From contig JBEKXF010000012.1 of the NCBI GenBank assembly GCA_049512315.1, forward strand, positions 1 to 64,000: DNA of 64,000 bases, read 5' to 3'. A program made the position numbers and the translations under genes. The DNA is from Candidatus Aminicenantales bacterium (lineage in GTDB: Bacteria; Acidobacteriota; Aminicenantia; Aminicenantales; Saccharicenantaceae). Numbering within the stretch: the stretch's first letter is position 1; each line of letters starts with the position of its first letter. Shown here piece after piece: positions 14,588-60,452 of this stretch. The notes beneath the pieces are model-generated. The model ran no database searches. It saw only the letters and a list, made by a program, of their open reading frames with translations, and had not been told where the DNA came from.

Positions 14588-14614
14588 GGGGCTTTGGGGG
14601 GCCTAAAAAGAAGG

Positions 14615-14655
14615 TAACTCTATTTCTTTCAATGTGTTGCTGTGGTCCGACCCCA
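14615..14655 (+). repeat. Family B repeat, partial copy (IHF-like site + TGTGGTCCGACCCCA end)
   Basis: TAACTCTATTTCTTTCAATGTGTTGCTGTGGTCCGACCCCA aligns without gaps to the last 41 nt of the copies at 45331-45443 and 60331-60443; lies between convergent mobA and dmsC. Confidence 0.65.
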
Positions 14656-14680
14656 TTAGGGCCCCATTAGGACCTGTGCA

Positions 14681-24781: not shown

Positions 24782-24785
24782 GGGC

Positions 24786-43027: not shown

Positions 43028-45376
43028 TCAGCGGACGACGATCTCGTCGACGAAGACCCAGGACGGACCACCGGCCGAGACGTGCCAGTCGGGCAGACGC
43101 TTCGTCCCTTCGATGCGGAAACGGACAAACCGCACGGAACCTTCGAAAGGGCCCTTCCAGGCAAAGGGTCGGATGACTTCCTCCCCCTGGTGGTCGCCCT
43201 CAACCGCGATCGCGCCGACGTCGTGAAAGGAGGAGCCGTCGGAAGATACGGAGCACGCGACGCGGTCCGGATGAAGGATCCAGCTCCGGAAGTCCGAAAG
43301 CGTGCTCAGGGAGATCTCCCGCGCCGCGACCGGCTTCCCGAGATCGAGCGTCAGCGTGAAATCGAGGCCCTCCCAGCCGAGCCAGTGGACCTTGCAGTCG
43401 CTCGCCCCGCGGACGCCGTTCGTCAGGATGCTCAGGTCCCCGTTCGCGTACTTGGGCGAAGGCAGAGGATCAGCCGCGACCGGCCGCCGGAACGCCAGGT
43501 TGCCCTCGACCTGGACGTCGATGAAGCGCTTCGCGGCGTCATAATAATCCCTGGGCGTGAGGCCCGACTCGCTGAGCGTCCGGACCCCGCCCGCCTCGCA
43601 CCTCGCATAAAACTCATCGAGGAGGCGCGCCATTTCCGGCTTCGCAGAGAACCTCCCGTCCTTTTCGGCGTAGAAGCCGCGCGGCCCGAACATGTCGTTC
43701 TTGCCGATCTCGAGCATGGCATACATCAGGGGGAGCCGCGCCGTCCTCACCCGTCCGAGCACCGCGGGGTCGCCGGCCGCGGCAGCTTCCGCCTTGTCGA
43801 AGAGGGAGTTGTAGGCCGAAACGTCCGCGGCCGATAAGTAATCTCCCGCGTGGACTGCCGGCGGCTCGTAGATATCGAGCTTCCCCCCCGTCCGCTCGAG
43901 CGCCCCGCGCACGGCGTCGATGTCTCCCCGGATGAATGGTCCGGCCTTCCCGTAATAGCCGTTGAGGAATTCGTTCATCACGGCGCTCGCATCCGCCTCC
44001 GGGTTCCAGAGGAGTCGCGCCAGAAGGTACGACTTGAGCTCGCTGAACTCATGCCCGGGGCTCGTGTTGGTCTGCTGGAAATGCTGGCGGACGCCGTGGC
44101 GGACGAAGAAACGGATGTTGGGCTGGAGGACGTGGAGGTTCGGGAAGGGCGAGACGTGGTGCGAGAAATTGACCGTGTAATCCCAGAGATAGAGATTGCC
44201 GCAGATCCGGCTCCAGTCCTTGATATCGCGTACGAACGACCGGCTCGACGGGTCCTCGTCGATGGGCAGGCTCCGGTTGAGCTCGATCGTGCAGAGCATG
44301 ACCTGGACGTTCGGGGCCGGCGGGGTCAGGCGCGGGGCCGGGCGCGAATACTGGTAGGCCAGGGTCGAGATGGTCTTGTCCGGGAAGAGGGCGGCCACAC
44401 GGTTCACGAAGCGGATGACCGGCCCGGCCGGCGAGCCCTCCTCGTCGATCGTCTTCCGGCACTCGGGACACTGGCAGTAGGAGAGATTGTCGTTCTGGCT
44501 GACCGACCAGATTTGCTTATCCGGCTGGGCAGCCATCTCCTCCCTGAGCCTCGCGACGACGATGTCGAAGACCTCGGGCCGCGACAGGCAGGGCTGGTCG
44601 ATGACGCGCTTGCCGTTCACCAGGGCGAAATACTCGGGGTGGTCGGCGAAGTACGTCTGCCAGGGAACGAGCTTCTGGAGGGTGTGGACGTAATAACCCT
44701 TCCCGTAAAGGTCGTCCTGGACGTGGAGCCTCATCCAGTCCCGGTAATCCGGGTCCTGGGCAAACTCGCCGTAGACGATGCGCATGGCATTGACAGGATT
44801 ATCGAGGTCGAAGGTGCAGCCCAGGACGACGTCATCCCGATGGGGGAAGAATTCGACGGTCGGACTGTATTTGCGGCAGCCGAAATATTTTTCGAGGAGA
44901 TGGACGACTCCGTAGATCGCGCCCTTTCCGCTCCCGCTCACGATATAAAGGTTCCGAAGGGACGTGGCGATGATAAAGCCATCGTTGCGAAGGGAAGAGA
45001 TCTGGGACCTGAGCTCCGGGGGCAGGTCTTTTTGCGGGAAGCCGATGGCGGCGACGTTTTCGCGGCCGGGCTCGCCCGCCGTCCTGATCGGCACGACCAC
45101 GCCGCTCATCTTTTGAACGGATGACTGGAGGATCTGCGCGGCGCGCTGCTCGGTCGCGCCCGCATCGTTCGGGATCTCGATCGCGCCCACAGGCCGGCCT
45201 TTGTCCACAAAGACAAAAGCCCGCGAGCACGGGCTGGACTGGACCGGTGCCGGCGCCGGGGCTGTTCTGGCCGTCCCGCCGGGCGCACACGCCGCCGCCC
45301 AGACGAGCGCCGCCGCGAGAATCAGAAAAATGGGGTCGGGCCTCAGTATCTTATTGTTATTAATTAATTTAGTCAT
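43028..45376 (-). CDS. DUF4838 domain putative glycoside hydrolase lipoprotein with C-terminal discoidin-like domain
   Basis: Lipobox AAAC; GH67/GH20-type N-domain (DGF....GAIYGV..LLE); HPEYFAL..GKR, QPCLS.P, SVSQND...YCQC..C, LAYQY, WDY, LLWNP. Confidence 0.82.
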   Translation of the reverse strand: MTKLINNNKILRPDPIFLILAAALVWAAACAPGGTARTAPAPAPVQSSPCSRAFVFVDKGRPVGAIEIPNDAGATEQRAAQILQSSVQKMSGVVVPIRTAGEPGRENVAAIGFPQKDLPPELRSQISSLRNDGFIIATSLRNLYIVSGSGKGAIYGVVHLLEKYFGCRKYSPTVEFFPHRDDVVLGCTFDLDNPVNAMRIVYGEFAQDPDYRDWMRLHVQDDLYGKGYYVHTLQKLVPWQTYFADHPEYFALVNGKRVIDQPCLSRPEVFDIVVARLREEMAAQPDKQIWSVSQNDNLSYCQCPECRKTIDEEGSPAGPVIRFVNRVAALFPDKTISTLAYQYSRPAPRLTPPAPNVQVMLCTIELNRSLPIDEDPSSRSFVRDIKDWSRICGNLYLWDYTVNFSHHVSPFPNLHVLQPNIRFFVRHGVRQHFQQTNTSPGHEFSELKSYLLARLLWNPEADASAVMNEFLNGYYGKAGPFIRGDIDAVRGALERTGGKLDIYEPPAVHAGDYLSAADVSAYNSLFDKAEAAAAGDPAVLGRVRTARLPLMYAMLEIGKNDMFGPRGFYAEKDGRFSAKPEMARLLDEFYARCEAGGVRTLSESGLTPRDYYDAAKRFIDVQVEGNLAFRRPVAADPLPSPKYANGDLSILTNGVRGASDCKVHWLGWEGLDFTLTLDLGKPVAAREISLSTLSDFRSWILHPDRVACSVSSDGSSFHDVGAIAVEGDHQGEEVIRPFAWKGPFEGSVRFVRFRIEGTKRLPDWHVSAGGPSWVFVDEIVVR

Positions 45377-45443
45377 CGCAAAGGTCGCTTTTTTGGCCTT
45401 AACTCGTTACTTTTGACCCCGAAAACGACGAGTTAAGAATCCC
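45331..45443 (-). repeat. Family B 113-bp repeat, copy overlapping the start of the DUF4838 gene
   Basis: Gapless 80/113 identity (hand count) to 60331-60443; internal hairpin CTTAACTCGT...ACGAGTTAAG; ends CTGAGGCCCGACCCCA. Confidence 0.88.
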
Positions 45444-45552
45444 ACGGCAATTTAGTCCAAGATGGCCGCTCGCGTCAAATCAAATGGAAGGATCGCGCCT
45501 AGAACTAGTGCCCGGAGTCAGGCGGTGCCGGAAACGTTCGGCAAGTCCAGCG

Positions 45553-47313
45553 CTAGTATCTCCAGCTTTTGAGGTCCGCACCGGCCGGGGCGGTCTTTTC
45601 CATTCGCTTAACTGCGACGGGGATGTACATCTGGTGATACCGGAGGCGCGAGACGTAGTTCGGCTGACCGTGGTCGCCGTTCCAGCAGTGCTCGGCCCGG
45701 TCGCCGTAATCCACCTGCCCGTCATAATATGGATTTTTCGTGTTTTTGAGGAAGGCCTCCATCAGGTAGACCGCGTTGTTGAGGTAGAAGTTGTCCATGT
45801 CGCCGACATAAATATGGATCTTTCCTTTGAGCTTCGGGCCGAGGGTCTTCCATTCGGCTTCGAGCTTGTCGCGGAGGTCGTAGCGTTTCCAGGACTCGGC
45901 GACCTTGCGGTCGATCTCGCCGGTGAGCTTGTCCCAGATCGGCGCGGGATAGCCGTCGGGGCCGGCGGGACTGAAAACCGCCTGCCAGATGTCCCACTGG
46001 TCGCCCGATCGCGAATGGGTCCCGAGGGCGAGCTCGCGGTGGTTCGCCTCCTCGAGAGTCGTGCCGACCTCGCCCAGGTAGTTGCGGGTTCCGGGCCGGG
46101 GCGTCTTCTTCCACCGGCTGTCCACGTAGTAGGCGTTCCTGTGCTCGTAGATGTTGACGATCGTGTAGGCCCGGAAATCGATCGGGTCGGGGCAGGCCGC
46201 GTAGCAGCCGTTGAACTCGTCGGGGTAGAAGATCTGGGAGGCCAGGGCTTCCCAGCCGCCCGTCGAGCCGCCGTAGAGGAAGCGGGCCCAGCCCTGGCCA
46301 ATCCCCCGGTACTTCTTCTCGATATAGGGGATGAGCTCACGGACGATGGCGTCGCCGTAAGGGCCGAGGTTGGCCGAGTTCACGGCGTAGGAATCGTCGT
46401 AATAGGGGTTGGCGTGCTGGATCTCCATGACGATGACCCGCGGGAAATTCGGCCCTGTCCATTCCTTATAGAAGTCATACGCGTATTGTTCCTGGATCCG
46501 GTTGTATCCCGGGATGTGGAAGCGGTCGCTCCAGTCGGGCTCGAGCTTCGGGTCGGGCGGCGTTTCCCGGAATCCCGAGACTGTGTCAGGGAAATGCCCG
46601 TGGAAGACCATCAGCGGATAGCGGGCCTCAGGGTGGGAATCGAACCCCTCGGGGAGGAGAAGGCAGGCGCCGAGGCACATGGGCCGGCCCCAGAAGTTGG
46701 TCAGGAGCTCGCTCTGGATCTTCTCGTGCCGGACGTATTTTGTGTCCTTGGGCGGGGCGATAGGCGGGATCTCCCGGTCGAGAACGATCCTGACCGTTCC
46801 CGTCTTCGCCGGGTCGATGGTCATTTGGCGAGGAGCGCTGTAGAGGTTCCCGGGCGCGGCGTTCCATCTCTGGCCTTCGCCGCGGTCCATGGGCAGCTTC
46901 ACGACATGGCCGTCCGACCTGTGAAAGGTCTCGTAGCGATGGAGAAGGGCCTGGACGGAGTATTCCCCGGGCGGCAAGCCGGCCAGGCTCCGCAGCGGAT
47001 AGCCGAAGGCCGAGGCGTCAACCAACGCCTCTGCGCCGGGCGCGAGGCCGTCCACGTCAACCCCAAAAACGAGCTGGGTGTTCGGACCGTCGCTGATCTG
47101 GAAGCGCGGCTCGGCTTTTCCGTCGGTCGAGATGAGGAGGAGCAGCCGGCCGTCGAGAGGCGTCTTCGAACGCTCGGCCGGAAAGCTGACCGCAAAACGG
47201 AGCTCAGTGGACGCGGACGGGGCGCGGGACAAACCCCCAATGGCCAGGCCCGCCGTGAGGAAGAGCGCCGCGACAACGGCGATCTTCCCGGCGCAATAAA
47301 AAATACATCTCAT
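45553..47313 (-). CDS. Secreted putative esterase (alpha/beta hydrolase)
   Basis: S.LL..FWGR, LLP.GF..HP..RYP, SANLGPYGDA...ELIP.IE, GGSTGGW nucleophile elbow, GDMDNFYL. Confidence 0.82.
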   Translation of the reverse strand: MRCIFYCAGKIAVVAALFLTAGLAIGGLSRAPSASTELRFAVSFPAERSKTPLDGRLLLLISTDGKAEPRFQISDGPNTQLVFGVDVDGLAPGAEALVDASAFGYPLRSLAGLPPGEYSVQALLHRYETFHRSDGHVVKLPMDRGEGQRWNAAPGNLYSAPRQMTIDPAKTGTVRIVLDREIPPIAPPKDTKYVRHEKIQSELLTNFWGRPMCLGACLLLPEGFDSHPEARYPLMVFHGHFPDTVSGFRETPPDPKLEPDWSDRFHIPGYNRIQEQYAYDFYKEWTGPNFPRVIVMEIQHANPYYDDSYAVNSANLGPYGDAIVRELIPYIEKKYRGIGQGWARFLYGGSTGGWEALASQIFYPDEFNGCYAACPDPIDFRAYTIVNIYEHRNAYYVDSRWKKTPRPGTRNYLGEVGTTLEEANHRELALGTHSRSGDQWDIWQAVFSPAGPDGYPAPIWDKLTGEIDRKVAESWKRYDLRDKLEAEWKTLGPKLKGKIHIYVGDMDNFYLNNAVYLMEAFLKNTKNPYYDGQVDYGDRAEHCWNGDHGQPNYVSRLRYHQMYIPVAVKRMEKTAPAGADLKSWRY

Positions 47314-47335
47314 GATAACCTCCTCAGTCCGTTAT

Positions 47336-49021
47336 TTATTTTTCGCCCATTCGGGTAATTTCAAACTCGCATGGCTTTCCCGGTTGCGTCTGCGAAAGGA
47401 TGATAAAGATGAGCCCGTTTTCCATTTTGAAATCCAGGGGCAGGCCATCGGCAAGGGCGCTGACTTTTGTGCCGGGGCGCGCAGGCGAAAAACGAACTCC
47501 GAGCTTTTGCGGGCCGCTGCCCTCGTACGTCCCGGAGATACGGTCCGACTGCATGTGATATCGGAGAACCCGGCCGCGCCATCTCAGAGTCTGGCCGAAA
47601 CCCTGGCGCCAAAAATCATTCGTGACGGTAGGCGCAAGAACGACTGAGCCGTCAAGGCCCATATTCACGCCCAGAAGGAAGCGCTGAACGATGCGGATCA
47701 GGTTCGCCGGATATTCGCAATAGGTGTTGGGGCCGACCGCTTTGGCACCTCCCCTGCCGTCCGGCTGATACCGTTCGCGCCAATAGTAGCCGTTCCTGGT
47801 GCCTTCTTTGCAGACTCTCCGGATCCCGCGCATGAGGCCTTCAGCGTCCCCCATGCGGGACCGGGCTTGCGCGTCCAGGAACCAGACACGACCCATGGCC
47901 GCCAAGTCGTGCCGGTCGGTGTGGGTGAATTCCCAATCCTCGTAGTTCTCCGGACGCGTCGCGATGCCTGTGGGCATGCCGCCGTAATAGAAACCACTAT
48001 CGTTCTTGAGCTTCGGCCAGAGGACGGCCACCTGTTCCGGTGTCGCGACGTCCAGGGCGATGGCCGCCCAGTCGACGTCCGTCAGCCCGTGACTCGAGAT
48101 CAATCCGTGCTGGGGATTGTCGTATTCGGCGAATTGCTCTTTTTCTTTGACCCAGAACCGCGACACGAAATTCCGTCTGATGCGTTCGGCCAGATTCTCG
48201 TATTTCTTGGCTCTCTCCGCGTTCCCCGCCACGCGATTCAGGGCAGCCACCCGGCGAAAGGCGTCGACGGCATGGCCCTGCGCGACGCCGTCATGCTCGA
48301 TCCGGGCGGGGCGCTCGACATAATAGCCCGCGCCCCTGACGGCGCCGGAGTCGTCGACGAGAGAGGCCAAATGATCCGCCGCCAGGTTGACCGTGGGGAG
48401 CTGGGCCGTAAGCCAGTTCATATCGAGCGTCCTCCGGAAGATGTCGTCTGCGTTCTGGATATAGGTCGGGTCGGCCAGGGCCGCCAAGGGATTCCCAGGG
48501 ACCCAGTGGGCGTACAACCCGCCGTTGGCGGCAACCGTGGCCAGGTGGTCGCCCTCCCCTACCTGCTTTCCGGCCAGATTCGGCAGGACCGCGATCGGCA
48601 GGGCGCCGTCCGGCCGCTGGAACGAGCGAACATAATCCCAGTTGGCCTTGATCACATCGACCCGGCCGAGCCAAAGCAGAGCGTCGGTCATCTGGTGACC
48701 GTCAAGCGACGGGTACGTATAGCCGTATCCAAATCCTTGCCCGTCGGCGCAGACCGACCAGTAGCCGAAAAAAACCTTCGGGTTGACTGCCGCGATGACA
48801 TTCTGCGCAGCCGCTCGCTCATACGCCCGCGCGATCGCCCGGTCCGGGAGGTCGGGCCAATCTCCTGCGTCGGACGATTGCTGCCCTGGCCTGTTTTCGA
48901 ATACCTGCGGCTTGGTTTTTTCGACCTGCTGTTCGAAGTCGCGGGCCTGGGCCTGAGACGTCGCCATGAATAGGCACCCGAGGGCTGCCGACAGCACCAG
49001 GATGATTTCTCTGGCCCTCAT
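47336..49021 (-). CDS. Secreted protein, probable (alpha/alpha)6 glycosidase-like
   Basis: Signal peptide; helical pattern 'A.LNR.AG....A.KYE.LAE.I...F..RFW', 'WRERY', 'RFLLGV' resembling six-hairpin glycosidases. Confidence 0.55.
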   Translation of the reverse strand: MRAREIILVLSAALGCLFMATSQAQARDFEQQVEKTKPQVFENRPGQQSSDAGDWPDLPDRAIARAYERAAAQNVIAAVNPKVFFGYWSVCADGQGFGYGYTYPSLDGHQMTDALLWLGRVDVIKANWDYVRSFQRPDGALPIAVLPNLAGKQVGEGDHLATVAANGGLYAHWVPGNPLAALADPTYIQNADDIFRRTLDMNWLTAQLPTVNLAADHLASLVDDSGAVRGAGYYVERPARIEHDGVAQGHAVDAFRRVAALNRVAGNAERAKKYENLAERIRRNFVSRFWVKEKEQFAEYDNPQHGLISSHGLTDVDWAAIALDVATPEQVAVLWPKLKNDSGFYYGGMPTGIATRPENYEDWEFTHTDRHDLAAMGRVWFLDAQARSRMGDAEGLMRGIRRVCKEGTRNGYYWRERYQPDGRGGAKAVGPNTYCEYPANLIRIVQRFLLGVNMGLDGSVVLAPTVTNDFWRQGFGQTLRWRGRVLRYHMQSDRISGTYEGSGPQKLGVRFSPARPGTKVSALADGLPLDFKMENGLIFIILSQTQPGKPCEFEITRMGEK

Positions 49022-49208
49022 CGTTCCACTCTCGGCTCGTATCCTTTCGACGCGCCTTCCCGGCGAAAAACAAGTTATCGCGCGTCCCGGCCGAAGTCAA
49101 GGCTCGGCGGGGCCGTCATGAACGGGCAGCTTGCGCGGATGATGACGCGAGCGTCCGCCCTCTCTTGCATCGGGGCCACGAAATGGAGAAGAATAGGCTT
49201 CAGGTCCG

Positions 49209-51491
49209 ATGAAAACGGCCGTCAAAGTTAAAAAAAAATCGGGGGCGTCAATGAATCGCAGATCCAGGTTCTCCGCATCATTCCGTTTCCGGGCGTCCGG
49301 CTTGGCCTTGGCCGCGGCGGCGTTCGTTTTTCTTCTTTGGGCCGGCGGAACGAGCGCATTCTCCAATGATCCAAGAACCCCGGCCAGCGAAAAAAGCAAA
49401 GCCATCCTTGACTATATCCATCACATCGATCAATCCCTCTCCTCCGAACGGCTGGACCGCTATCTCAGGTATTTCACGGCCGAGCCCCACGTCGCTTCCT
49501 CACCCCGGAATAACGCTCTGGCCCAATTCATCCTCGACGAGTGGCAATCCTTCGGGCTCGAGGACGTCCGCCTGGCGGAGTATGACGTCCTCCTTTCATT
49601 CCCCGAGCGCATCGCCGTGGAGATCATTGCTCCCAAAAAACTCTCCCTGTCCCTCAAAGAAGACAGCGTCCCTCAGGACCCGGACACGCTGCGGCGGGAT
49701 GTCGGACTCCCCTACAATGCCTATTCGGCCTCCGGGAATATCGTCGCGCCCGTCGTCTACGCCAACAGCGGAAACCCGCAGGATTATGACCTCATCGAAA
49801 GAAGCGGCATCGACCTGAAGGGCAAGATCGCCCTCGTCCGCTACTCGGAACCGTATTCTTATCGCGGCTTCAAGGCCCAAACCGCCCAGCAACGCGAGCT
49901 GGCCGCTCTCCTGATCTATTCCGACCCGAAAGAGGACGGCTCCGCCCGCGGCCCGGTCTTCCCCGATGGCCCATGGGGGCCGATGAGTCACATCCAGCGG
50001 GGCGGGATCCCCTTTGACTTCATCTATCCCGGCGACCCGCTGACGCCCGGCTGGGCCTCCGTTCCCGGAGCGAAAAGGCTATCGCTCGAGGAGAGCGCGG
50101 CCGTCCCCAAGATCATCAGCATTCCCATTTCGGCCCGCGACGCTCTTCCGCTCTTCCAAATGATGGGCGGACCCCAAGCGCCGAAAGAATGGCGGGGAGC
50201 GCTCCCGGTCACTTATCGCCTCGGAGGCGACCTCCCCCGCGTCCATATCGATATCAAAATGGACAACTCGACGCGCAAGATCATCGACGTCATCGGCTGC
50301 ATCAGGGGGAGCGAAGACCCTGAACAGGCCGTGCTCGTCGGCAACCACCGCGACGCGTGGGTCTTCGGCGGGCTCGACCCGTCGAGCGGGACGGCCTGCC
50401 TGATGGAGCTGGCCCGGGCCTTCGGAGAGGCTAAGAAGGCCGGCTTCCGTCCCCGGCGCTCGGTCTATTTCGCGAGCTGGGACGCCGAGGAATTCACCCT
50501 TACCGGCTCGACCGAATGGGGGGAGGAAAACCGGGACTGGCTCGGCCAAAGCCTCATCGCCTACCTCAATGTTGACAGCTCTGCCGACGGCAAGGACTTC
50601 AATGTCGCGGCGGTGCCCGCGCTTTCGCGGATCATCCTCGGGGCTCTCTATGACGTTTCCGATCCAACGACTGGGCAAACGGTCTACGAGCGCTGGAAAA
50701 AGGGCCCCCAGGAGAAGGGGACGATCGCCACGGCCTCGGGCAGCGGCCGGATCAACGCGATCGGCAGCGGGTCCGACCACACCGTCTTTCTCAACCATCT
50801 CTGCGCCCCGGCCCTGGACATGAACTTCTCGGGAGACTACGGGGTTTATCATTCCATATACGACGACTATTACTGGATGAGGCACTTCGGCGACCCGGGG
50901 ATGCGGTACACGAAAGCGCTGGACCGGATCTGGGCGCGCATCGCCGTCGACCTGGCCTCGAGCCCGCTCGTCCCCCTGGACTATGAAACATACGCCACGG
51001 AGCTCAAAGCGTACCTCGAGGAGTGGGCCAAGCCGTTCGACCCCGCGAAGAAAAAGCTCGGACCGCTCTTCGGGCTCGTCGAGGAGATGAGACGGGCGGC
51101 GGCCGGAATCAGTCCGGCTCTCTTCGGCGGAAGCGCGGCTGGGAAGCCGCCGGAGAGGGGGACATGGCCAAGCACGGTAGGGGCGACTGGAGTGGAGCCC
51201 GGGACGGAGGTCGCGGCGGAAAAAAGGGGCGAAGCCAACCGGCTCCTGATCGAGGTCGAAAGGGATTTCGCGCTCCCCGAAGGCATCCCGAACAGGAGCT
51301 GGTTCAAGCACCTCGTTTTCGGGACGCGCTCGACCTACGTGGCGCTCCTCCTCCCGGAGCTGACCGAAGCGGCCGAGGCGGGGAACGAGAAGGGCGTGGA
51401 GGCCGCCATCGCCCACCTCGAAGCCGCTGTCGGCAAGGTGACCCTCAGGCTGAAAAATATCGCCGCGATCCTTGGTCATCCCGGGACCTGA
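49209..51491 (+). CDS. M28B glutamate carboxypeptidase II-like peptidase (PA + TfR dimerisation domains)
   Basis: PHVAS, Y.VLLS.P, GDPLTPG, GNHRDAW..G..DPSSG, SWDAEEF...GSTEW, YLNVD, GSGSDH, YHS.YD, RSWFKH. Start may be 49251. Confidence 0.92.
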   Translation: MKTAVKVKKKSGASMNRRSRFSASFRFRASGLALAAAAFVFLLWAGGTSAFSNDPRTPASEKSKAILDYIHHIDQSLSSERLDRYLRYFTAEPHVASSPRNNALAQFILDEWQSFGLEDVRLAEYDVLLSFPERIAVEIIAPKKLSLSLKEDSVPQDPDTLRRDVGLPYNAYSASGNIVAPVVYANSGNPQDYDLIERSGIDLKGKIALVRYSEPYSYRGFKAQTAQQRELAALLIYSDPKEDGSARGPVFPDGPWGPMSHIQRGGIPFDFIYPGDPLTPGWASVPGAKRLSLEESAAVPKIISIPISARDALPLFQMMGGPQAPKEWRGALPVTYRLGGDLPRVHIDIKMDNSTRKIIDVIGCIRGSEDPEQAVLVGNHRDAWVFGGLDPSSGTACLMELARAFGEAKKAGFRPRRSVYFASWDAEEFTLTGSTEWGEENRDWLGQSLIAYLNVDSSADGKDFNVAAVPALSRIILGALYDVSDPTTGQTVYERWKKGPQEKGTIATASGSGRINAIGSGSDHTVFLNHLCAPALDMNFSGDYGVYHSIYDDYYWMRHFGDPGMRYTKALDRIWARIAVDLASSPLVPLDYETYATELKAYLEEWAKPFDPAKKKLGPLFGLVEEMRRAAAGISPALFGGSAAGKPPERGTWPSTVGATGVEPGTEVAAEKRGEANRLLIEVERDFALPEGIPNRSWFKHLVFGTRSTYVALLLPELTEAAEAGNEKGVEAAIAHLEAAVGKVTLRLKNIAAILGHPGT

Positions 51492-51551
51492 ATCCCGACT
51501 AAATTGATGGGCCCAAAAATGCGGGGCGTGCTAAGATAACGGCAAGGGGAC

Positions 51552-52328: not shown

Positions 52329-52330
52329 TC

Positions 52331-52471
52331 AATTTCGGTGACACACAACTCAACCACTCAATTCCCCCGGAAATTGGGTTTTCCAAATGGCGAACACGGT
52401 ACCCATTCCCGAATTTGTCTGCAGGCGGTATTTCGGTAATTAGATATATGTCACCGAAATATCACCGAAAT
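52331..52471. repeat. Family A REP-like mosaic (3 units)
   Basis: AATTTCGGTGACACACAACTC... (52331, +), degenerate unit ending CCCGAATTT (52385-52416), inverted unit ATTTCGGTAATTAGATATATGTCACCGAAAT (52430-52460) followed by a duplicated TCACCGAAAT. Confidence 0.88.
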
Positions 52472-52488
52472 AGGCGAAGAGGCGGATC

Positions 52489-55443
52489 TCAGGGCTCGGC
52501 CGCGGCCCGGGCCGCCGCCTCGATGGCGATGGCCGCGACCGCGGACCCGTAATCGAGGTCGATATTCCCCATCGTGTCCTGCGTGTCGTGATAGCCGGTG
52601 CGGTTGATATCGTAGTTTTCCATGAAGAGCACGACCGGCACGCCGACATCCGAGAAGATCTGGCCGTCGGTGTTGAACAGGGAACTCAGAGGGTTCTCCG
52701 GCGTCCGGATCTCGCCGAACAGCCGGGGATAGAGGGCGATCTCCGGCAGGCGGGCCGGGTCGGGACTCCGCTTTCCGCGCCCCCGCCCCCGGCGCTCGGG
52801 GCCCCGGTTCCCGTCCTCCGCTTTCAGGTTCCAGATCCGGTTGGCCGCATAAGCGTGCCGGGCGAGCTTCAGTGAACCGGCGCCCCTCCCCGGGGACATC
52901 TGAAAGACGTCCCGCTCGCTGTCCAGGTTGTGGGCGATCATGTCCATGACGAAAACCCCCGCCACGCGCGTCCCGGCGAGGTTGACGGTCTCGCCGCCCG
53001 CGAGTCGCATCCGGAGCGACCCCTCCACCAGAGTCCGGCAGAAATGGCGTGCGCCCATGCAGTCGGCCGGGAACTCCTCGCCCGTGAGATGGAGCAGCCA
53101 GACATCCCGCTCGAGGCGCCCCTCCTTGGCCAGCCTCAGGAAAACCGGCCCCGCCCGGAGGAGCGTCGCTGTCGCCGAATGATTGTCGTCCGCTCCGGCG
53201 GCCGCGATCCGGACGCCGTCCCCGCCTCTGGACTTGTCGTACCGGTCTTCCATGTAGGCCGTGTCGTAATGGTCGGCCAGGACGATCGCTTCCCGACGGT
53301 TCTTCCCGGGGATGACGACCAGGATGTCCCGCTCATGGGTCTTCCCGTCCTGGTTTTCCTTCCAGCCGCCGAAGATCGAGTAATCGAAATCCGTCTTCCA
53401 GTAGAACGGGACCTCGCCGCAAAGGGCCGTCCCTTTCATGCCCGCCGCCACGATGGCCTGCCGGTGGCGGTCCATGAGATAGTCGCCGAGGGCCTCGAGG
53501 TCGCGGCGACAGTGGGAGAGACAGCTCAACGTCAGGGGGTCCTGGGCGCAGTCGGCGTTGTCCTTGTTGACATAGCGGCCGTGGGCGAGAAGCGCGATGT
53601 CGTTCCAGAGGCCCTCCTCGAAAGCGCGCGTGGCGGTCTCGGCGTAGGTCACGGATTCTGAAACGACATGGGCCGCCCCGGCGGATCCCGGCGCGGACGC
53701 GGCCGGCGGTTCGAGGATCCGCCCGATCTCGCGCTGGATCGCCCGCCCTTTCGGGGGGTCCGCCGACCGATCAGCCAGAGAGGAGGACCAGGCGTCGAGC
53801 GACTCCTCTTCGGCCAGGCGCAGGAGGTGCCGGGCAAAATCCCGCGGTAACGGCCGGCCGTCGAGGAGCGTATGGCTGTTCAATAGGGCCAGGATATTCA
53901 GCGGCGTCTGATGCGTGTAATGCTCGCGCAGATGATCGCAGATCCGCAGCGCTTCGAGGTAGGTTTCGCGGCGGAGAAACCGGGGCCAGAGAAAGAGCGG
54001 ACGGGCCGGGTCCGGTGGATCCGCCCGATAAGCCGTCAGGCAGCCGAGCGGCGCTCCGGGCAGGACCTCGGCCCGCGACTTCTCTTCCGACCAGAAGGCC
54101 GCGAGCGGCCGGTGCCAGTAAATCTCGTGGCGTCCGACCCGCATCGCCGGGAATTGGAAGCGATAGCTGAAAAGCCCGCCCTTGGCCACCGCCTCGCCGG
54201 CCGCGTAAATCTGACCGGGATCGGCGTTCGGCCCGTCGAGGAGCAGCCGCGAATCCTCGGTCCAGATCTGGCAGTTCCGGGCCAGGGGTTTGTCGTAAAG
54301 GCCGATCGCGTCGGGCGCGGTGCTGAAGAGGACCCTGGCGACCCGGTCCTCGAGCCTGCTCAAGGCCACATCATCCTCGTAGCGGCGGACGCGGTTCCAG
54401 CGGCTCGTCCGCTTGTACGTGTTGAGCAGCAGCTCCCCATGGATCTCCGGGGGAACCCGGCCGGTCCCTTCTTCATGAAGCCATCCCGACTGCGGGATGC
54501 GGAAGCCGCCGGGCGCGCCATGACGGGCCGCGAGGCGCTGCAGGGAAATCTGCATGGCCAGGGGCAGCTTTTCCTGGAGGCGGATATAGTCGCGCTCCCC
54601 CCAGAAAACGAGGCTTCCCGGGTAAGGCAGCAGGACGAGCTTCCCTGAAAAATAGCGCTGTTTGACCTTCTCCGGAAGGCGGGCGAAGGGCCGGAAGGTC
54701 AGGAGATAGCGAACGTCGTCGAAGGCCGCCGCCCCCGCGTCGACGAGGAGCGGCGCCGTCCAAGAAGGAAGGGCGGCCTCAATCCAGTACGGGAACCGCG
54801 GGTCCGGCTCCGTCGGCAGGACCCGGAACCCGGTCGGCCGAAGCCCGGCTGAGCCTTTAACGGGCTCGCCGTACACTCGGGAGAGAAGATCGACCAGGAA
54901 GGCAAGCGATCCGCTCTCTGGAAGCTCCCGGTCCGGAGCCGAGCGGAATCCCTTCCAGAAGGCTTGTTCGGGCCCCTGCTCGCTCGACCCGAAAAACGTC
55001 CAGCGGACGCGCCCCTTATCATCCTGGGTCCTCGACAGGGCCAGCGGGAGAAAAACGACATAGCACTCGCGGCCGAGCAGCGCGGTCCGGGCCAGAAGCT
55101 CGGGCGGGCAGTAGGGATTGTCGACGAGGTTCCGGCCTTTGTGCCCGGGGATGCGGAATTCGGGCTTGCCCCGCCCCAGCCTGACGAGGGCCCCGACGAT
55201 CTCCTCGGCGAGATGCTCGAGCCCCGGCTTGAGCTCGTACTCCTCCTCGATCTCGGGGATCGCCCAGCCGTAGGGGTCATCGTCCGAAAAAGGCAGGGCT
55301 TCCCGGTCACCGTAGGGCTTGCGGCCGAGCCGCGGCGGCGGCATGAATTCCGAGTAGGCGGGAAGCGGGAAGCTCCCTTTGCCGTCCAGCCACGGGAAGC
55401 CCTCCATCAGGAGCCGCCAGCCGGTCGGGGTGGTCGGGCTCAT
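52489..55443 (-). CDS. Large protein: about 640-aa N-terminal region of unknown function fused to a C-terminal M28 metallopeptidase domain
   Basis: C-terminal DHYDT, GADDN.S.T, TGEE, MDMI, YH...D motifs; no signal peptide. Confidence 0.78.
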   Translation of the reverse strand: MSPTTPTGWRLLMEGFPWLDGKGSFPLPAYSEFMPPPRLGRKPYGDREALPFSDDDPYGWAIPEIEEEYELKPGLEHLAEEIVGALVRLGRGKPEFRIPGHKGRNLVDNPYCPPELLARTALLGRECYVVFLPLALSRTQDDKGRVRWTFFGSSEQGPEQAFWKGFRSAPDRELPESGSLAFLVDLLSRVYGEPVKGSAGLRPTGFRVLPTEPDPRFPYWIEAALPSWTAPLLVDAGAAAFDDVRYLLTFRPFARLPEKVKQRYFSGKLVLLPYPGSLVFWGERDYIRLQEKLPLAMQISLQRLAARHGAPGGFRIPQSGWLHEEGTGRVPPEIHGELLLNTYKRTSRWNRVRRYEDDVALSRLEDRVARVLFSTAPDAIGLYDKPLARNCQIWTEDSRLLLDGPNADPGQIYAAGEAVAKGGLFSYRFQFPAMRVGRHEIYWHRPLAAFWSEEKSRAEVLPGAPLGCLTAYRADPPDPARPLFLWPRFLRRETYLEALRICDHLREHYTHQTPLNILALLNSHTLLDGRPLPRDFARHLLRLAEEESLDAWSSSLADRSADPPKGRAIQREIGRILEPPAASAPGSAGAAHVVSESVTYAETATRAFEEGLWNDIALLAHGRYVNKDNADCAQDPLTLSCLSHCRRDLEALGDYLMDRHRQAIVAAGMKGTALCGEVPFYWKTDFDYSIFGGWKENQDGKTHERDILVVIPGKNRREAIVLADHYDTAYMEDRYDKSRGGDGVRIAAAGADDNHSATATLLRAGPVFLRLAKEGRLERDVWLLHLTGEEFPADCMGARHFCRTLVEGSLRMRLAGGETVNLAGTRVAGVFVMDMIAHNLDSERDVFQMSPGRGAGSLKLARHAYAANRIWNLKAEDGNRGPERRGRGRGKRSPDPARLPEIALYPRLFGEIRTPENPLSSLFNTDGQIFSDVGVPVVLFMENYDINRTGYHDTQDTMGNIDLDYGSAVAAIAIEAAARAAAEP

Positions 55444-55452
55444 GGGGTCAGC

Positions 55453-56787
55453 TCACGATCCCGCGAGCCGCACGGGATCCGCGTTCGGCACGGCTTGATA
55501 GGACACGTAGCTTCCCCGCCGGTCCCTGGCCACGGGCATTCGCATGAGCCAGGTTCCCTGCCGCACCTCGACGGCCGTCCATGCGGCCGGAACGTATGTT
55601 TTCAGGGTGAGCGGCAGGTCGTAGACCCCGGCCGCGAGGTCGTGCCCCACCGTCACGTCGATCACGTCCCCAGCCCGCGAGGCCTGGACCCGGGCGTGCA
55701 TGCGCTCTCTCATGTACTTCGTCACATCCTGGAATGTCGCCACCCAGATCTGATCTTGCTTCGACTTGATGTAGCCGAAATATTCCGTGAGCTCCGCGCC
55801 CGTCTTCGGTTCCCAACCGATGCCGTCGACGCCGTGGAAGACGAGCACGAGCCACATGTTGTCGTGCGCGGCGACCGTGTCGATCCACGATCTCATCAGG
55901 CTCATCGGGGTTTTCGTCAGGGCCCCGCGCTGCCACTGCACGTACTCTTTCGTGGACGCGGCCGGGTCCTTCACGCTCGAGCGGTCGAGCTCTTCCAGGA
56001 ACGGCTCGGGCAGGCGGTTCCGCGACGCCGGATAGCGGGCGAGCGCATAACGGAGGACCCGCTCGTCCTCGGTGCCGTAGGGACATTCGACGGTGAAAGT
56101 GTGCTTGGGGCCGAGGTGATCGAGGATCTCCTTGCGGCTCTTCTCGAGCTCATAAACAAGGTTGGCCTCGTCAAGGACCGCCAGGCGGGGATGCGTGACC
56201 GTATGGCTGGAAAATTCGTAGCCCCGTTCCGCCAGCGCCTTCAGCTCATCCCACGTGACCGCGTCCCGCTTCCCGGCGACGACATCCGATTTTGTTTCTT
56301 TCTGGAAAGCGCCGCGGCGTACCTTAGCGTAGGCCTCGTCGATCAGCCGGAAGGCCTCTTCGGCTTTGCCGTCCTCGTACAGCTCGCCGGCCCGGCTGTG
56401 GTATTCGAGAGTCCCGCGGAGGGCGAGGTGGCCGATCGCGGAGGCCCGTTCGAAAAAATTGTCACTGTTGGTCGGCACGCCGGCGGTCTCACGGATGATA
56501 GCTCGGGTCGGGCGGCCGATGAACGTGCCGGGGTATCGGGAGCCCGGAATGTCGCCCGTGATGATGTGGAAGGTCGCGGGGAAGCCAAGCCCGTTCATGA
56601 TGGGCACCGCGACGCGGAACTGGTTGATGCTTTTATCATCAAAGGTCAGCGAAACCGCCGCCCGCTTTTCGAACCGCCACTTGGCGATCTCCGTTTGTCC
56701 TACTTCGGCGTCTTGGCCCGGAGAGGAGCGAAGGGCGAGGCAAATGATCCCCGCCATGGCGAGCCAAGAACAGGTCACGCGCTTCAT
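55453..56787 (-). CDS. Secreted polysaccharide deacetylase (NodB/CE4-like)
   Basis: AVSLTFDD, ATF.I, GYEFSSHTVTHP.L, PYG, WLVLVFHG. Start ATG 56787 after GAGGAGG. Confidence 0.82.
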   Translation of the reverse strand: MKRVTCSWLAMAGIICLALRSSPGQDAEVGQTEIAKWRFEKRAAVSLTFDDKSINQFRVAVPIMNGLGFPATFHIITGDIPGSRYPGTFIGRPTRAIIRETAGVPTNSDNFFERASAIGHLALRGTLEYHSRAGELYEDGKAEEAFRLIDEAYAKVRRGAFQKETKSDVVAGKRDAVTWDELKALAERGYEFSSHTVTHPRLAVLDEANLVYELEKSRKEILDHLGPKHTFTVECPYGTEDERVLRYALARYPASRNRLPEPFLEELDRSSVKDPAASTKEYVQWQRGALTKTPMSLMRSWIDTVAAHDNMWLVLVFHGVDGIGWEPKTGAELTEYFGYIKSKQDQIWVATFQDVTKYMRERMHARVQASRAGDVIDVTVGHDLAAGVYDLPLTLKTYVPAAWTAVEVRQGTWLMRMPVARDRRGSYVSYQAVPNADPVRLAGS

Positions 56788-56840
56788 CCGAACCTCCTCG
56801 TCCGAACCAGGCACCGCGCCGCGTCTCTTATTTTGCCCCA

Positions 56841-57002
56841 AATTTTGGTGACACACAACTCCATCGCTTAATTTCTCCTCCGAGATAGGGACACCATACT
56901 TATTTCCGAATTTCACAGCCTGCGTGAATTTCGGCATAGAGTCGAGTGTCACCGAAATTTTGCCTGTGAGAATTCTGGTAATTAGTTGTGTGTCACCGAA
57001 TT
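56841..57002. repeat. Family A REP-like mosaic (4 units)
   Basis: Units at 56841 (+, AATTTTGGTGACACACAACTC), 56886 (+, GGGACACCATACTTATTTCCGAATTT), 56927-56959 (-, AATTTCGGTGACACTCGACTCTATGCCGAAATT) and 56971-57002 (-, AATTCGGTGACACACAACTAATTACCAGAATT). Confidence 0.9.
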
Positions 57003-58221
57003 AGGGGAGGCGGGAGCCCCAGCCGGTTTCGACGGCATAATTCATGCACCTGGCGAAAATCCCGTAATCGAATTCCGGGCAAACGATGCCTTTGCGCTCG
57101 AGGATGGGCCGGGATCTCGCCGTCTCGAAAACCCGGGCATCCCTCATGTAGGGCCCGTAAGCCTCCACGTAATGATCGTAGAGCGCCTCGAGGGGGTTCC
57201 TGGGTTTCTCCCTGAATTCCTCCGGGCCGCAAGCCCTGATTCCCGTCATCCGGAAAAGGCGGCAGCTGTAGTCGATGATGTCCCCGATCCGTTTCGCCCG
57301 GCCGTTGACGATATGGAAGACGCCTCCGCCGGGTGCTCCCTCCATGATCGCTAGGAACGCCCCCGTGAAATAATCAACGGGGATGAGGTCGATGCCTCCC
57401 TCGCCCGCCACTTCGATCCGTAAGGGAAGATGGATCGAGCCGTCGGCATCGATCCGCACCCCGATTTCGGCGGCCTTTCGGCCCCCGCGCTCGCGGATGT
57501 CTTTCTCATAGACGTCACGGATAAAGAGGGCCGTCCGCACGGGGAAATAGACGGCATTGAAGAGGAGGCTTCTCCCCGTCCGCGAATCCCCATAGACGAT
57601 GGACGGCCGATAGATCGTCAACCCTAAGCCCGCCTCTCCGCAGGCCGCCGCGGCCGCATGTTCGCCCCGGCATTTCGTCTCTTCGTAGGCGTTCCAGAAC
57701 TCGCAGGGCGTCACGAGGTCTTCGGGGCAGACGCCGGTCGTCTTGCCCGCGACAAACGCCGTGCTCACGTGGTGAAAAAAATACGCTTGGCTCTCACGGG
57801 CGAATTCCAGGACATTCGCGAGCCCAGCGCTATTGACCTCCTCCACCTCTTCCCTTTTCCTCTCGGAAAACGCCGTATTCGAAGCGCAGTGAATGATCTC
57901 GTCCGTCTCGAGAAGCAGCCCTCGCACGTCCTCCGCGGGAATGCCCAACCCCGGCCGCGTGATGTCGCCCTCGACGGCCCTGAGCCCTCGACGGTCGCCT
58001 TCCGACAGGCCGAACCAATCGAGGAGCCCGCGCACCCGGTCCTCTGCCCGCCGCGCGCCGCTCGAGCGGGCGAGGAGCGTAACGCGGAAACCCCGCCTGA
58101 GAAGCTCGACGGCGATGTGACTCCCCAGGAACCCGGTCCCGCCCGTCAGGAAAAAGCGGGTGGAGCGGTCCGTTCGCTTTTTCTCGATCTTCTCCCGGGA
58201 GATCCGCGCGGCGCTCGTCAT
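57001..58221 (-). CDS. Extended SDR, NAD_binding_4 (male-sterility / thioester reductase / fatty acyl-CoA reductase-like)
   Basis: FLTGGTGFLG, VEGDIT.P.LG, IIHCAS, HVSTAFV, N.YEETK..GE, YRPSIV.GDS.TG, PVDY. Confidence 0.85.
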   Translation of the reverse strand: MTSAARISREKIEKKRTDRSTRFFLTGGTGFLGSHIAVELLRRGFRVTLLARSSGARRAEDRVRGLLDWFGLSEGDRRGLRAVEGDITRPGLGIPAEDVRGLLLETDEIIHCASNTAFSERKREEVEEVNSAGLANVLEFARESQAYFFHHVSTAFVAGKTTGVCPEDLVTPCEFWNAYEETKCRGEHAAAAACGEAGLGLTIYRPSIVYGDSRTGRSLLFNAVYFPVRTALFIRDVYEKDIRERGGRKAAEIGVRIDADGSIHLPLRIEVAGEGGIDLIPVDYFTGAFLAIMEGAPGGGVFHIVNGRAKRIGDIIDYSCRLFRMTGIRACGPEEFREKPRNPLEALYDHYVEAYGPYMRDARVFETARSRPILERKGIVCPEFDYGIFARCMNYAVETGWGSRLP

Positions 58222-58272
58222 CTCATCTGCCTTCTCACGCTTTCTGCACCCCGCACCCCCTCCGCAGCCGCC

Positions 58273-60126
58273 CTAGTCCAGGCGATAGAGGAAGTTCTCC
58301 TTCCGCGAGCAGCCCTGGGAAAAGACATACATGAGGAACGTGACGCCCTTCGTTTTGGCCGCCAATCCGTCGAGCCACGGCCCGATCTCGGTCATGGCGT
58401 CCGCGATTTTCTTTTTGTCGGCGGGGTCGGTGTGCTCGATGTAATAGTCGTATTCGAGGATGGCCCGCTTCCCGAAGTCCATCGGCGTCAGGAAGCCATA
58501 GTCGTGCTCGATCTTGCGGGCATCGGCGATCCGCACGAAACCGGCGATGATGCCGTTGATGACCTCGATCTTGTCGAGCGGCACGTAAACGAGGAAGGCG
58601 AACATGTGCTTGCGTCTCGACATGCGGGCGCTGACGATCCGGAACATGTTGAGCCAGACCATGTCGGTCATCTCGGGCCGGGCGTAGAGCCGGGCATAAA
58701 ATTCCCTAAGGTCCTCGTCGACCGACCCGGCGATCGTCTCCGGCGACGGCTGGAGGACGGCCTCGACGACGGGCCTCATCTCCGGGCTGCAGAGGATCTC
58801 GTAGAGAGGCGCATTGCCTTCGTATGTCGAGGCGATCCCGGCGAGCTCGCTGTCGGCGAGCCGGGGCAAGCCGAGCATGAGCGTCCGGAAAAGCGCGCTG
58901 TCGATGACGGCCGTTCCGGCCATTTTCCTGATCGCCTCGCGGCCGTGGGCGTCGGCGACGGCGAAAACCAGGTACTTGATGCCCAGGACCTCGGGCAGGA
59001 GGTTCTTGATCTTCTCGGCGAGCTCCCGGGACGGCGACATGAAGTTCGAGATGTAGTGGCCGCCGAGGACGGCCAGGGCCAGGGCGAGCCGGCGCCGGCT
59101 CAGATCTCGGGCGAAAGCCACCGCCTTATCGAAACTTGTGAACGGCACGAGGATGCCTTCCTCGTCGTCGGTGACCGGATGGAGCTTGACCACGGCCTTC
59201 GTGCAGACGCCGGGAGACGGGATCATGGCGTGGTCGAAGGCGAAGACGTTCGGCGCGCTCTTGTCGTTGAGGCGGAAGACTTTGCCTTTCCGGTCCACGA
59301 ATTCCATGTCGATGAATCCGTCCGCGGCCGTCCCGTAGACGTTGGACCAGGTGGAGAACGTCCCCGTGCAGACGAGGTTGCCGCAGACGGTGGCCGCGGG
59401 CTCGGCGGCGTTCACACGGTAGCCCCGCTTATAGGCTTCCTTCTGGAGCTCGAACGACGTGACGCCCGGCTCGACGGCGACGCACCAGTTGTCCGCATCG
59501 AATTCGATTTTTCGCATCCGGTTCATGTCGAGGACGATCCCCTCGGTGAACACGAACCCGAAGACGCTCCCGCCGTTCCCCCGGATGGCGAAGGGGATCT
59601 TGAGCTCGTCGGCCAGAACCACGACCGCGGCGACCTCGTCCCTCGAGCCGGGCAGAACGACGTAGCGCGGCATCTGGATCCCGGCCAGAGGGAACGGATC
59701 GTCGGCGTAGGTGAACAGGATGGCCGGGTCGTTGGTCGCCCATTCGTCACCGACGATCGTTCGCAAGCGCTTCAGGACGGCGTCCTCTTTCGGCTTATGG
59801 ACCGGTTTTTTCGCGGCGAGGTGCTCGCGGACATGGTGCTTGAGCGCTTCCATGACCTTGACCGGCCGCATCCCGGTCACGAAATGGCACTGCTTGTCGC
59901 AGATGCCGCAGAGCGTGCAGGTGTCGGCGGCTTCGACCAGAGCTTCCGTGACAGGGATGAGATCTTCAGCCAGGGCGCGATAGAGGTCCATCCGCCCTTG
60001 GGGATAGAAAGCCACGTAATGCCTCTCCGGGCCCGAAGGACAGAGTCCGGTATCGAGATAATCGATCTTGCACATGGCATAGTGCCGGCACTGGGCGGCG
60101 GTTTTTCTGGCGCTTTCGTCGATCAT
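58273..60126 (-). CDS. Fe-S cluster / FAD-binding (PCMH-type, GlcD/Dld-like) oxidoreductase
   Basis: N-terminal C..Y.MC...CP and CTLCGICDKQC; then P..VVLP.SRDEV..VV..A....IP...RGNGG, LDMNRM, VEPGV. Start ATG 60126 after GGAGG. Confidence 0.8.
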   Translation of the reverse strand: MIDESARKTAAQCRHYAMCKIDYLDTGLCPSGPERHYVAFYPQGRMDLYRALAEDLIPVTEALVEAADTCTLCGICDKQCHFVTGMRPVKVMEALKHHVREHLAAKKPVHKPKEDAVLKRLRTIVGDEWATNDPAILFTYADDPFPLAGIQMPRYVVLPGSRDEVAAVVVLADELKIPFAIRGNGGSVFGFVFTEGIVLDMNRMRKIEFDADNWCVAVEPGVTSFELQKEAYKRGYRVNAAEPAATVCGNLVCTGTFSTWSNVYGTAADGFIDMEFVDRKGKVFRLNDKSAPNVFAFDHAMIPSPGVCTKAVVKLHPVTDDEEGILVPFTSFDKAVAFARDLSRRRLALALAVLGGHYISNFMSPSRELAEKIKNLLPEVLGIKYLVFAVADAHGREAIRKMAGTAVIDSALFRTLMLGLPRLADSELAGIASTYEGNAPLYEILCSPEMRPVVEAVLQPSPETIAGSVDEDLREFYARLYARPEMTDMVWLNMFRIVSARMSRRKHMFAFLVYVPLDKIEVINGIIAGFVRIADARKIEHDYGFLTPMDFGKRAILEYDYYIEHTDPADKKKIADAMTEIGPWLDGLAAKTKGVTFLMYVFSQGCSRKENFLYRLD

Positions 60127-60255
60127 GCCAAACCCTCCATCGTAGCTCGTTTGCTCGCGGCCGCGCTGACCTGCCGGTAGCCGAAAGAAACTTTGTCTGT
60201 CGTCAGTCCATTCCCTGCCCGTAGCCCAGTCATTTTTGTTATCCATTATACAAAT

Positions 60256-60287
60256 AATTCGGTGACACACAACTCATTACCGAAATT
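60256..60287 (+). repeat. Family A REP-like hairpin, single unit
   Basis: AATTCGGTGACACACAACTCATTACCGAAATT. Confidence 0.88.
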
Positions 60288-60330
60288 CTCTCAGGGAGTG
60301 AATGAAGGAAGGGAAACGTCGGAAACGTCG

Positions 60331-60443
60331 GGAATCCTTAACTCCTCCTTTTTGCCCAAGAAAACAACGACTTAAGGCCAAAAAAGTGGCCTTTTTTGCG
60401 CGTATATGATTTTTAATCAGTAACTTACTGAGGCCCGACCCCA
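60331..60443 (+). repeat. Family B 113-bp repeat
   Basis: Gapless match to the reverse complement of 45331-45443; contains AATCAGTAACTTA (IHF consensus WATCARNNNNTTR) immediately before CTGAGGCCCGACCCCA. Confidence 0.88.
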
Positions 60444-60452
60444 ATTAAACAA

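Follow-up and report, generated by a model that had tools for sequence, protein, structure and literature searches.

A dispersed repeat in a Candidatus Aminicenantales genome as the terminal inverted repeat of a TIRtron, with a candidate IHF box in its end

Background

Genes for Y1 transposases lying between long terminal inverted repeats (TIRs) were described as TIRtrons or TIRYTs by Di Nocera et al. 2013 (PMC3733652). TIRYTs are reported to make up a large Y1 subclass (subclass 2.1, 14.9% of strains; PMC6006769), which corresponds to RAYT group 1 (Bertels 2017, PMC5581495). Other TIRs are called unrelated in PMC3733652, so that the terminus GGGGWSAS is common but not defining. The literature on TIRYTs and TIRtrons that we found consists of sequence surveys only. 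Here we describe a repeat in a 64,000-nt stretch of the genome of a Candidatus Aminicenantales bacterium, called the window below, which is almost certainly a dispersed copy of the 108-nt TIR of a TIRtron on another contig of the same genome (G000:C15:35735-36744). This kind of element is known. The layout of its end appears to be new, and the sequences hold evidence on the site at which the enzyme would break the DNA.

The source genome (G000) has 3.55 Mb and 60.8% GC, and its close protein relatives carry the label Candidatus Aminicenantes. The window corresponds to G000:C12:1-64000, and coordinates given without a contig refer to it.

Copies of the repeat in the window

A sequence-only reading of the window, made before this analysis, had proposed that 45331-45443 (reverse complement) and 60331-60443 match without gaps. 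They do, with 80/113 identical positions (blastn E 7e-9 against the 3.55-Mb genome) and an identical last 18 nt as claimed, and they form the longest inverted pair within the window. The third, partial copy of that reading was recovered over 14598-14655 (nhmmer E 3e-7), and its three 13-mers resembling a site for integration host factor (IHF) read as given, with 0 (60415-60427), 2 (45347-45359) and 1 (third copy) mismatches to WATCARNNNNTTR. One correction concerns the final A, which is flank, the element being about 108 nt long (45332-45439 and 60335-60442). The inner hairpin stood in part: both window copies fold at this point (z -4.0 and -3.2), whereas z <= -2 is reached by only 11/22 genome copies and covariation is lacking. 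The features of the three copies are as follows.

45332..45439, + strand: solo TIR copy of full length that reads inward from its terminus at 45332 and matches the left TIRtron end at 67/108 positions
45332..45342, + strand: terminal motif GGGGTCGGGCC of the 45332 copy; position 1 variable across the clade
45347..45359, - strand: IHF-consensus box with 2 mismatches, positions 16-28 of the 45332 copy; A/T tract 5' of the box
45397..45437, no strand: inner dyad CTTAA..TTTT..AAAA..TTAAG, positions 66-106 of the 45332 copy
60335..60442, - strand: solo TIR copy of full length with its terminus at 60442, matching the left TIRtron end at 65/108 positions
60415..60427, + strand: perfect IHF-consensus box AATCAGTAACTTA of the 60442 copy
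60337..60377, no strand: inner dyad of the 60442 copy
60442..60457, - strand: 8-nt junction stutter of two units (7 nt flank plus position 1) at the 60442 copy
14598..14654, - strand: partial TIR copy with terminus and IHF box (1 mismatch) retained and inner dyad gone
14655..14686, - strand: junction stutter of three units (CCTAAT x3) that separates the terminus of the 14654 copy from the DmsC stop

The stutter at 60442..60457 overlaps the stop of an ABC ATPase gene (60453-61112). The repeat was also considered as a structured RNA and rejected: the Rfam scan of the window gave nothing but a tRNA, and over the TIRtron on C15 there was nothing at E <= 1. Promoter and terminator scans were uninformative.

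The genome-wide family and its TIRtron

A profile was built from 22 full-looking copies chosen by eye from 45 matches of the terminal motif in G000, which makes the scores of these seeds circular. Their alignment has one gap column and a mean pairwise identity of 61%. Besides the 22 seeds, the search of G000 returned three clear partials (C12:14598, C23 and C24), four weak matches (E 0.04-0.5) and matches of the inner dyad to its own reverse, while nhmmer against the reversed genome gave 0 matches at E <= 1. The dispersed family claimed from the window alone is supported by further copies across the genome. The 22 full copies comprise the two ends of the TIRtron, three back-to-back dimers (6 copies; 241, 242 and 253 bp) and 14 solos.

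The two TIRtron ends point outward and bracket a gene for a 243-aa Y1/HUH transposase. This is the RAYT/IS200-like gene with such ends which the sequence-only reading had proposed to look for, and its guess of a transposase-assembly site is supported. Its preferred identity, an independent composite of a repetitive extragenic palindrome (REP) and an IHF site of the RIB/BIME-1 kind, did not hold, the repeat being the end of a TIRYT element; this is close in spirit to the terminal remnant of a known insertion sequence (IS), which that reading had itself named as speaking against its proposal. As the origin of the repeat, a host composite like the Escherichia coli RIB/BIME-1, serving the nucleoid or transcript ends independently of any element, is largely refuted, and we hold it to be very improbable. 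Most of 80 loci of the clade have the transposase between two such TIR units, a GTAG tag and a REP-linker-iREP layout are missing (GTAG, GTGG or CGTC stands at the palindrome foot in 2/22 copies), and about 25 copies are too few for a genome-wide lattice. What such a composite would account for is the persistence of old solos at orthologous sites with motifs intact, the copies that G001 and G002 retain although no enzyme was found there, and the 15/29 termini lying within 57 nt of a stop codon.

In the genus, counts of the pattern were 16, 19, 13 and 4 where the enzyme was found (the last genome being 55% complete) and 7 (G001), 3 (G002), 1 (62% complete) and 2 where it was not, among relatives which are few and mutually non-independent. 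Each of 5 further genomes has 4-18 TIR matches. The TIRtron occupies the same locus across the genus, with right-hand neighbours varying between species, and gave no match in plasmid and phage collections. Of 29 termini, 15 face gene stops and 14 face starts (heuristic gene calls), and integron-like cassette arrays are not supported by this distribution.

Several observations concern the surroundings of single copies. In five convergent genes (C5:276, C7:100661, C31:13106, C15:35735 and C15:36744) the TIR provides the stop codon and the final residues, e.g. GVGPQ. Close to contig ends (G000 C21:167, C23:209 and C24:54472), TIR copies are broken up by another repeat, probably the end of an IS, which also adjoins a copy in G001 (L029). 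An IS200-type tnpA (L001, G000:C44:9030-9473) abuts the inner end of the copy at C44:8900, and solo and truncated TIRs lie among genes which by eye resemble small toxin-antitoxin genes (G000 C12:82659-85600 and C31:25999-30353). In G193, six TIRs of one orientation lie within 87 kb (C1:7002298-7089078), and 15/18 genome-wide are on one strand.

Layout of the 108-nt end

Read from the end, the terminus and the IHF-consensus box (16-28) are followed by an A/T tract, by AA/TT steps that recur about every 11 bp, and by the dyad (66-106). The terminus is GGGTCGGRCC at positions 2-11, position 1 being G in 76% of 172 ends that had passed a filter of 3 or more of 5 layout features. In the clade the exact terminal motif is present in 60/80 upstream and 66/80 downstream ends, and these 60 and 66 ends were selected by the motif alone. 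A box with at most one mismatch, solely at offset 16, occurs in 11/22 copies in G000, 27/60 upstream ends and 37/66 downstream ends, against a best-offset maximum of 3 in shuffles; the WATCAR half by itself matches 77/126 ends (shuffle maximum 13). The column profile agrees with WATCARNNNNTTR, with the middle four bases mostly free and a 5' tract of 69-81% A/T. The best-fit spacing is unshifted for the box in 94/103 ends and for the dyad in 87/103, 23 ends having been left out as too short. The fixed spacing of the IHF-like site thus extends to additional copies, as the sequence-only reading had expected. G000 has two genes of the IHF/HU family, both scoring higher on IHF than on HU, and from its sequence the box at positions 16-28 probably is a binding site for IHF.

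Pairing of the dyad in G000 was not above permutation. Across taxa the outer half-sites covary (0/1000 permutations reach the observed value; relatedness was not controlled), and the spacers do not pair above chance in any set. From this pattern the inner dyad seems to us to be a symmetric site for protein binding and not a hairpin. The upstream TIR stops just before the start codon of the transposase. An asymmetry of left and right ends was considered, as a position weight matrix separates them (56/60 and 54/66), yet the difference follows the protein tail encoded by the right TIR. The layout as a whole is strongly conserved and apparently undescribed.

The layout also bears on whether TIRtron ends are processed as single-stranded hairpins, like those of IS200/IS605 or REP, with the IHF-like box being a promoter aid for the transposase or incidental. 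All characterised Y1 enzymes use single-stranded DNA (ssDNA) according to PMC8266576 and PMC6006769, and the folding of half of the copies, the covarying half-sites, the upstream TIR ending directly before the start codon and a box that is weak in three genomes are all in keeping with such processing. Nevertheless we judge it unlikely, since the box is no weaker at the downstream end, which has no need of a promoter, the spacing and the phasing of about 11 bp are maintained, and neither the spacers nor the G000 copies show the pairing or covariation of a hairpin.

The transposase

The product of the C15 gene matches PF01797 (Y1_Tnp) above cut-off, and the HuH residues (H60 and H62), Y123 and N127 are invariant in 75/75 relatives. 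The predicted structure of the G000 enzyme (mean pLDDT, i.e. predicted local distance difference test, of 85) has the TnpA-REP 4ER8 as its best fold match (E 1.9e-7), while a sequence search of the PDB gave no match. The model has a helical C-terminal extension, and a helix-turn-helix (HTH) domain of Pfam was found in 0/75 members. The signature of the G000 enzyme is YIDLNM, with M at that position in at least 90% of the 75 relatives, and its score of 72.7 bits on NF047646 is below the cut-off of 80. The motifs NHxH, WE and YIxLN are present in the clade, whose enzymes are about 240-265 aa long. The right TIR encodes the last 25-30 or so residues of the transposase, often ending ENxYFW, and is a dual-coding end (L041-L120).

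The clade sample, the best 80 of 600 confirmed GTDB loci, comes from Desulfobacterota, Gammaproteobacteria, Nitrospirota, Planctomycetota and Acidobacteriota. Up to 8 matches, whole or partial, occur in one genome. In G000 there are two further TIRYT genes, each with its own TIR family.

Junctions, stutters and duplications

In 47/48 two-ended loci a target-site duplication could be at most 3 nt long, and none was seen on comparison of filled and empty dimer sites. What marks the junctions is perfect tandem repeats across them, in 31/172 ends versus 1.4% (maximum 3.5%) at pseudo-junctions. The stutter unit consists of 5-13 nt of flank and 1-30 nt of TIR start in 25/172 ends, versus 0.5% in controls. 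Larger terminus-anchored duplications in complete genomes have units of 34, 120, 286, about 804 and about 890 nt, which all begin 5-10 nt beyond a terminus and extend inward. Among within-genome pairs of at least 90% identity, 12/13 have in common 6-10 nt ending at position 1 (5-9 nt of flank), which holds for 0.33% of 6633 between-genome pairs; the comparison is limited to pairs with fewer than 25 nt in common. Outside the terminus there is only a weak A/T-A/T-T bias, and solos, dimers and truncated copies all keep the terminus.

Comparisons with the strains X2-X5 rest on contigs, not reads. X5 lacks one unit of the 8-nt stutter at 60442, a loss not listed for X2-X4. In X4 the left TIRtron end carries an additional G, and 11 additional nt stand behind the solo at C15:39959; the X4 contig that skips the TIRtron is weak, one side being just 30 nt.

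The outer limit of the repeated units is narrow and the inner limit broad, as would fit nicking of the GGGTCGG strand a few nt beyond the end. The same stutters and common flanks might arise with no programmed nick if the TIR carried a tight protein-DNA roadblock at which replication slipped or repair took place, as some units switch at short microhomologies (by eye) and unit lengths vary at both ends. Slippage in place fails, however, to explain near-identical copies at distant sites which have 5-9 nt of outside flank in common and then diverge, or duplications of up to about 890 nt with one end fixed near the terminus, and we regard this explanation as improbable.

Proposed mechanism

The TIR may well be a double-stranded loading site bent by IHF, from which the enzyme would make a nick 5-10 nt beyond the GGGTCGG end and then copy the element inward, one-ended and in rolling-circle fashion; taken by itself, the route of nicking outside and copying inward seems about evenly balanced between true and false. 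IHF on positions 16-28, together with the phased A/T tracts, would fold the inner dyad back toward the terminus, and the transposase would bind terminus and dyad. Its tyrosine would take the 5' end of the nick on the strand reading flank then GGGTCGG, and the free 3' end would be extended into the element by a host polymerase. Early resealing would give the stutters, and longer synthesis tandem TIRs, duplications of TIR plus gene, and one-ended copies which land elsewhere as solos.

A number of points weigh against the bent-site proposal. Characterised Y1 enzymes act on hairpins of ssDNA (PMC8266576), and a Pfam scan of the 75 members detected no DNA-binding domain besides Y1_Tnp. The box at <=1 mismatch is weak in G191 (1/17), G192 (0/11) and G193 (4/18), and both IHF-like genes of G000 are under the NCBIfam cut-offs. 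The G000 enzyme has 243 aa versus the typical 260-268 and lacks the tail encoded by the right TIR, for which reason it may be impaired. The 13 high-identity pairs are non-independent, come from few genomes and include some local tandem copies, and the stutters could stem from polymerase slippage at a bound complex.

Carried further, the proposal would be that a widespread Y1 clade has left the ssDNA hairpin mode for a relaxosome-like, IHF-bent 108-bp platform of double-stranded DNA, nicking host DNA a short way outside the conserved end without a fixed sequence. Abortive rolling-circle copying would then spread its ends, its dimers and parts of genes, and would also rewrite neighbouring gene starts and stops. 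We put this forward tentatively, with some doubt. If IHF and double-stranded DNA were needed, the Y1 transposase would work in the manner of a relaxase and not of IS608 or TnpA-REP. Since the clade offers a 108-bp substrate that is defined, a candidate for the host cofactor, and predictions of where and on which strand the nick falls, existing assays can be used to test the chemistry.

History of the window copies and neighbouring genes

The 15 kb between the two full window copies are ordinary chromosome, syntenic with the flanks in relatives, and the copies therefore do not bound a 15-kb element; a composite transposon spanning 45332-60442 was rejected on the same ground. The repeats could still be ends of a DDE transposon or of a miniature inverted-repeat transposable element (MITE) with the interval as cargo, given that GGGG termini face outward in dimers and around the 15 kb, and that GGGG ends with an IHF site presumably resemble those of Tn3-like elements. 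We give this next to no weight: a target-site duplication is missing, the gene enclosed codes for a Y1 and not a DDE enzyme, the interval is syntenic, and the two window copies have different histories.

The 45332 copy is whole in 6/7 genus relatives and a terminal remnant in the 7th. Read outward, it holds an in-frame ATG and the N-terminus of a DUF4838 gene in G000 and in 6/7 relatives, with a 1-nt shift in G007:

43028..45376, - strand: DUF4838 lipoprotein-like gene, predicted ATG and first 15 codons inside the TIR

This copy is accordingly predicted from sequence to provide at present the start codon of the host gene. A regular expression for the TIR-derived N-terminus matched 9/120 DUF4838 homologues, 2 of them chance-like, and the homologue P0004 has an in-frame repeat of it. 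The TIRtron identity accounts for the dispersed family and also shows an end in use as a predicted gene start.

At the 60442 site, out of 6 relatives examined, this TIR is present in G001 alone, another TIR family (GGTGACAC) in G002, G004 and G006, and neither in G005 and G007; no orthologue of the site was found among at least 118 loci from a metagenome pattern scan. The 14654 copy has the same site in relatives and is whole in G004 and G006. In G004 and G005 the DmsC gene and the terminus meet within the end of that gene, pointing to deletions beside the TIR end. The three dimer sites hold in relatives the other family, this family or nothing, so that dimers come and go and families share sites. 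The methyltransferase-like gene (ubiE-like by eye) that comes after the junction in G001, G002, G004, G005 and G007 is deleted in G000, where at 60130-60260 nothing but its first codons is left.

Other TIR families in this genome

The GGTGACAC repeat is the TIR of a second TIRYT (G000:C18:60680-61369), with window copies at 24572-24782, 52331-52461, 56841-57003 and 60255-60292, the last of which adjoins a copy studied here:

60255..60292, + strand: arm of the GGTGACAC family, to which the ends of the C18 TIRYT belong; forms a hybrid dimer with the 60442 copy, which it faces

This family also stutters, 11 nt at 52451 being absent in X2, X4 and X5. A third TIRYT (L003, G000:C6:22230) is frameshifted and has self-complementary GGGGTCAAATC ends and about 14 dispersed copies; its family stacks directly outside the studied TIR in G006 and G007. 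No fixed IHF box was found in the GGTGACAC ends (at most 2/21; 1/37), and in the GGGGTCAAATC ends it is weak (at most 5/16). An IHF box general to all TIRYT ends was rejected, these two families being without a fixed one. Finally, a RAYT-like gene (L004, G000:C15:68354-69010), in which Phe replaces the catalytic Tyr, lies upstream of a sugar-epimerase-like gene.

Comparison with known systems

With the TIRtrons and TIRYTs of PMC3733652 the element shares long TIRs around a Y1 gene, a G-rich terminus, a TIR overlapping the 3' end of the gene, and moderately abundant single, dimeric and grouped TIR copies. It differs in the terminus GGGGTCGG, which misfits GGGGWSAS (0/22; 2/126), position 7 being G, and in the 108-nt layout of IHF box, phased tracts and dyad, which is absent from the main text of that paper. 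In literature naming TIRYT or TIRtron, IHF occurred only in reference lists, in a search of text; figures and one alignment lie outside such a search and may show these TIRs. Nothing was found on IHF in TIRYT ends by literature searches which covered text supplements, most subscription papers being outside their scope, and a text search for the terminal 11-mers gave, among the matches listed, none that was related by title.

The members of TnpA-Y1 subclass 2.1 as described by Quentin et al. 2018 (PMC6006769) have in common with this clade NHxH, WE and YIxLN, a length of about 240-265 aa, the lack of a REP, a low copy number and the same locus across a genus. Here, on the other hand, Y---NM is found and not Y---NP, there is no SS motif and no Pfam HTH in 75 members, and up to 8 matches, whole or partial, are present per genome.

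The REPIN/RAYT and BIME-1/RIB systems (PMC3333891, PMC8266576) are likewise non-autonomous inverted dimers beside a sessile Y1 gene, with an IHF site inside the repeat and many copies near gene 3' ends. Here, however, no GTAG-tagged hairpin is present, the arms are 108 nt and not 20-40 long, and the IHF box is at positions 16-28 in each arm, beside the terminus, and not in the REP-iREP linker as in BIME-1. IS91 (PMC13181058) shares an HUH enzyme, the lack of a target-site duplication, and one sharp and one variable end, but its ori and ter ends differ from each other and its target is a tetranucleotide, whereas here the ends are alike, both stutter, and the break is apparently outside the conserved end. 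The relaxosome at the origin of transfer (oriT) of the F plasmid (PMC7690428), where HUH nicking is helped by IHF and accessory sites shaping double-stranded DNA, serves as a working analogy only: here there are no conjugation genes, the Y1 enzyme is small and without a helicase, and no plasmid or phage matched. Judged by its sequence, the element is a TIRtron by arrangement and a variant by its terminus and by Y---NM, and not a member of REP/BIME-1, of the DDE MITEs or of IS91.

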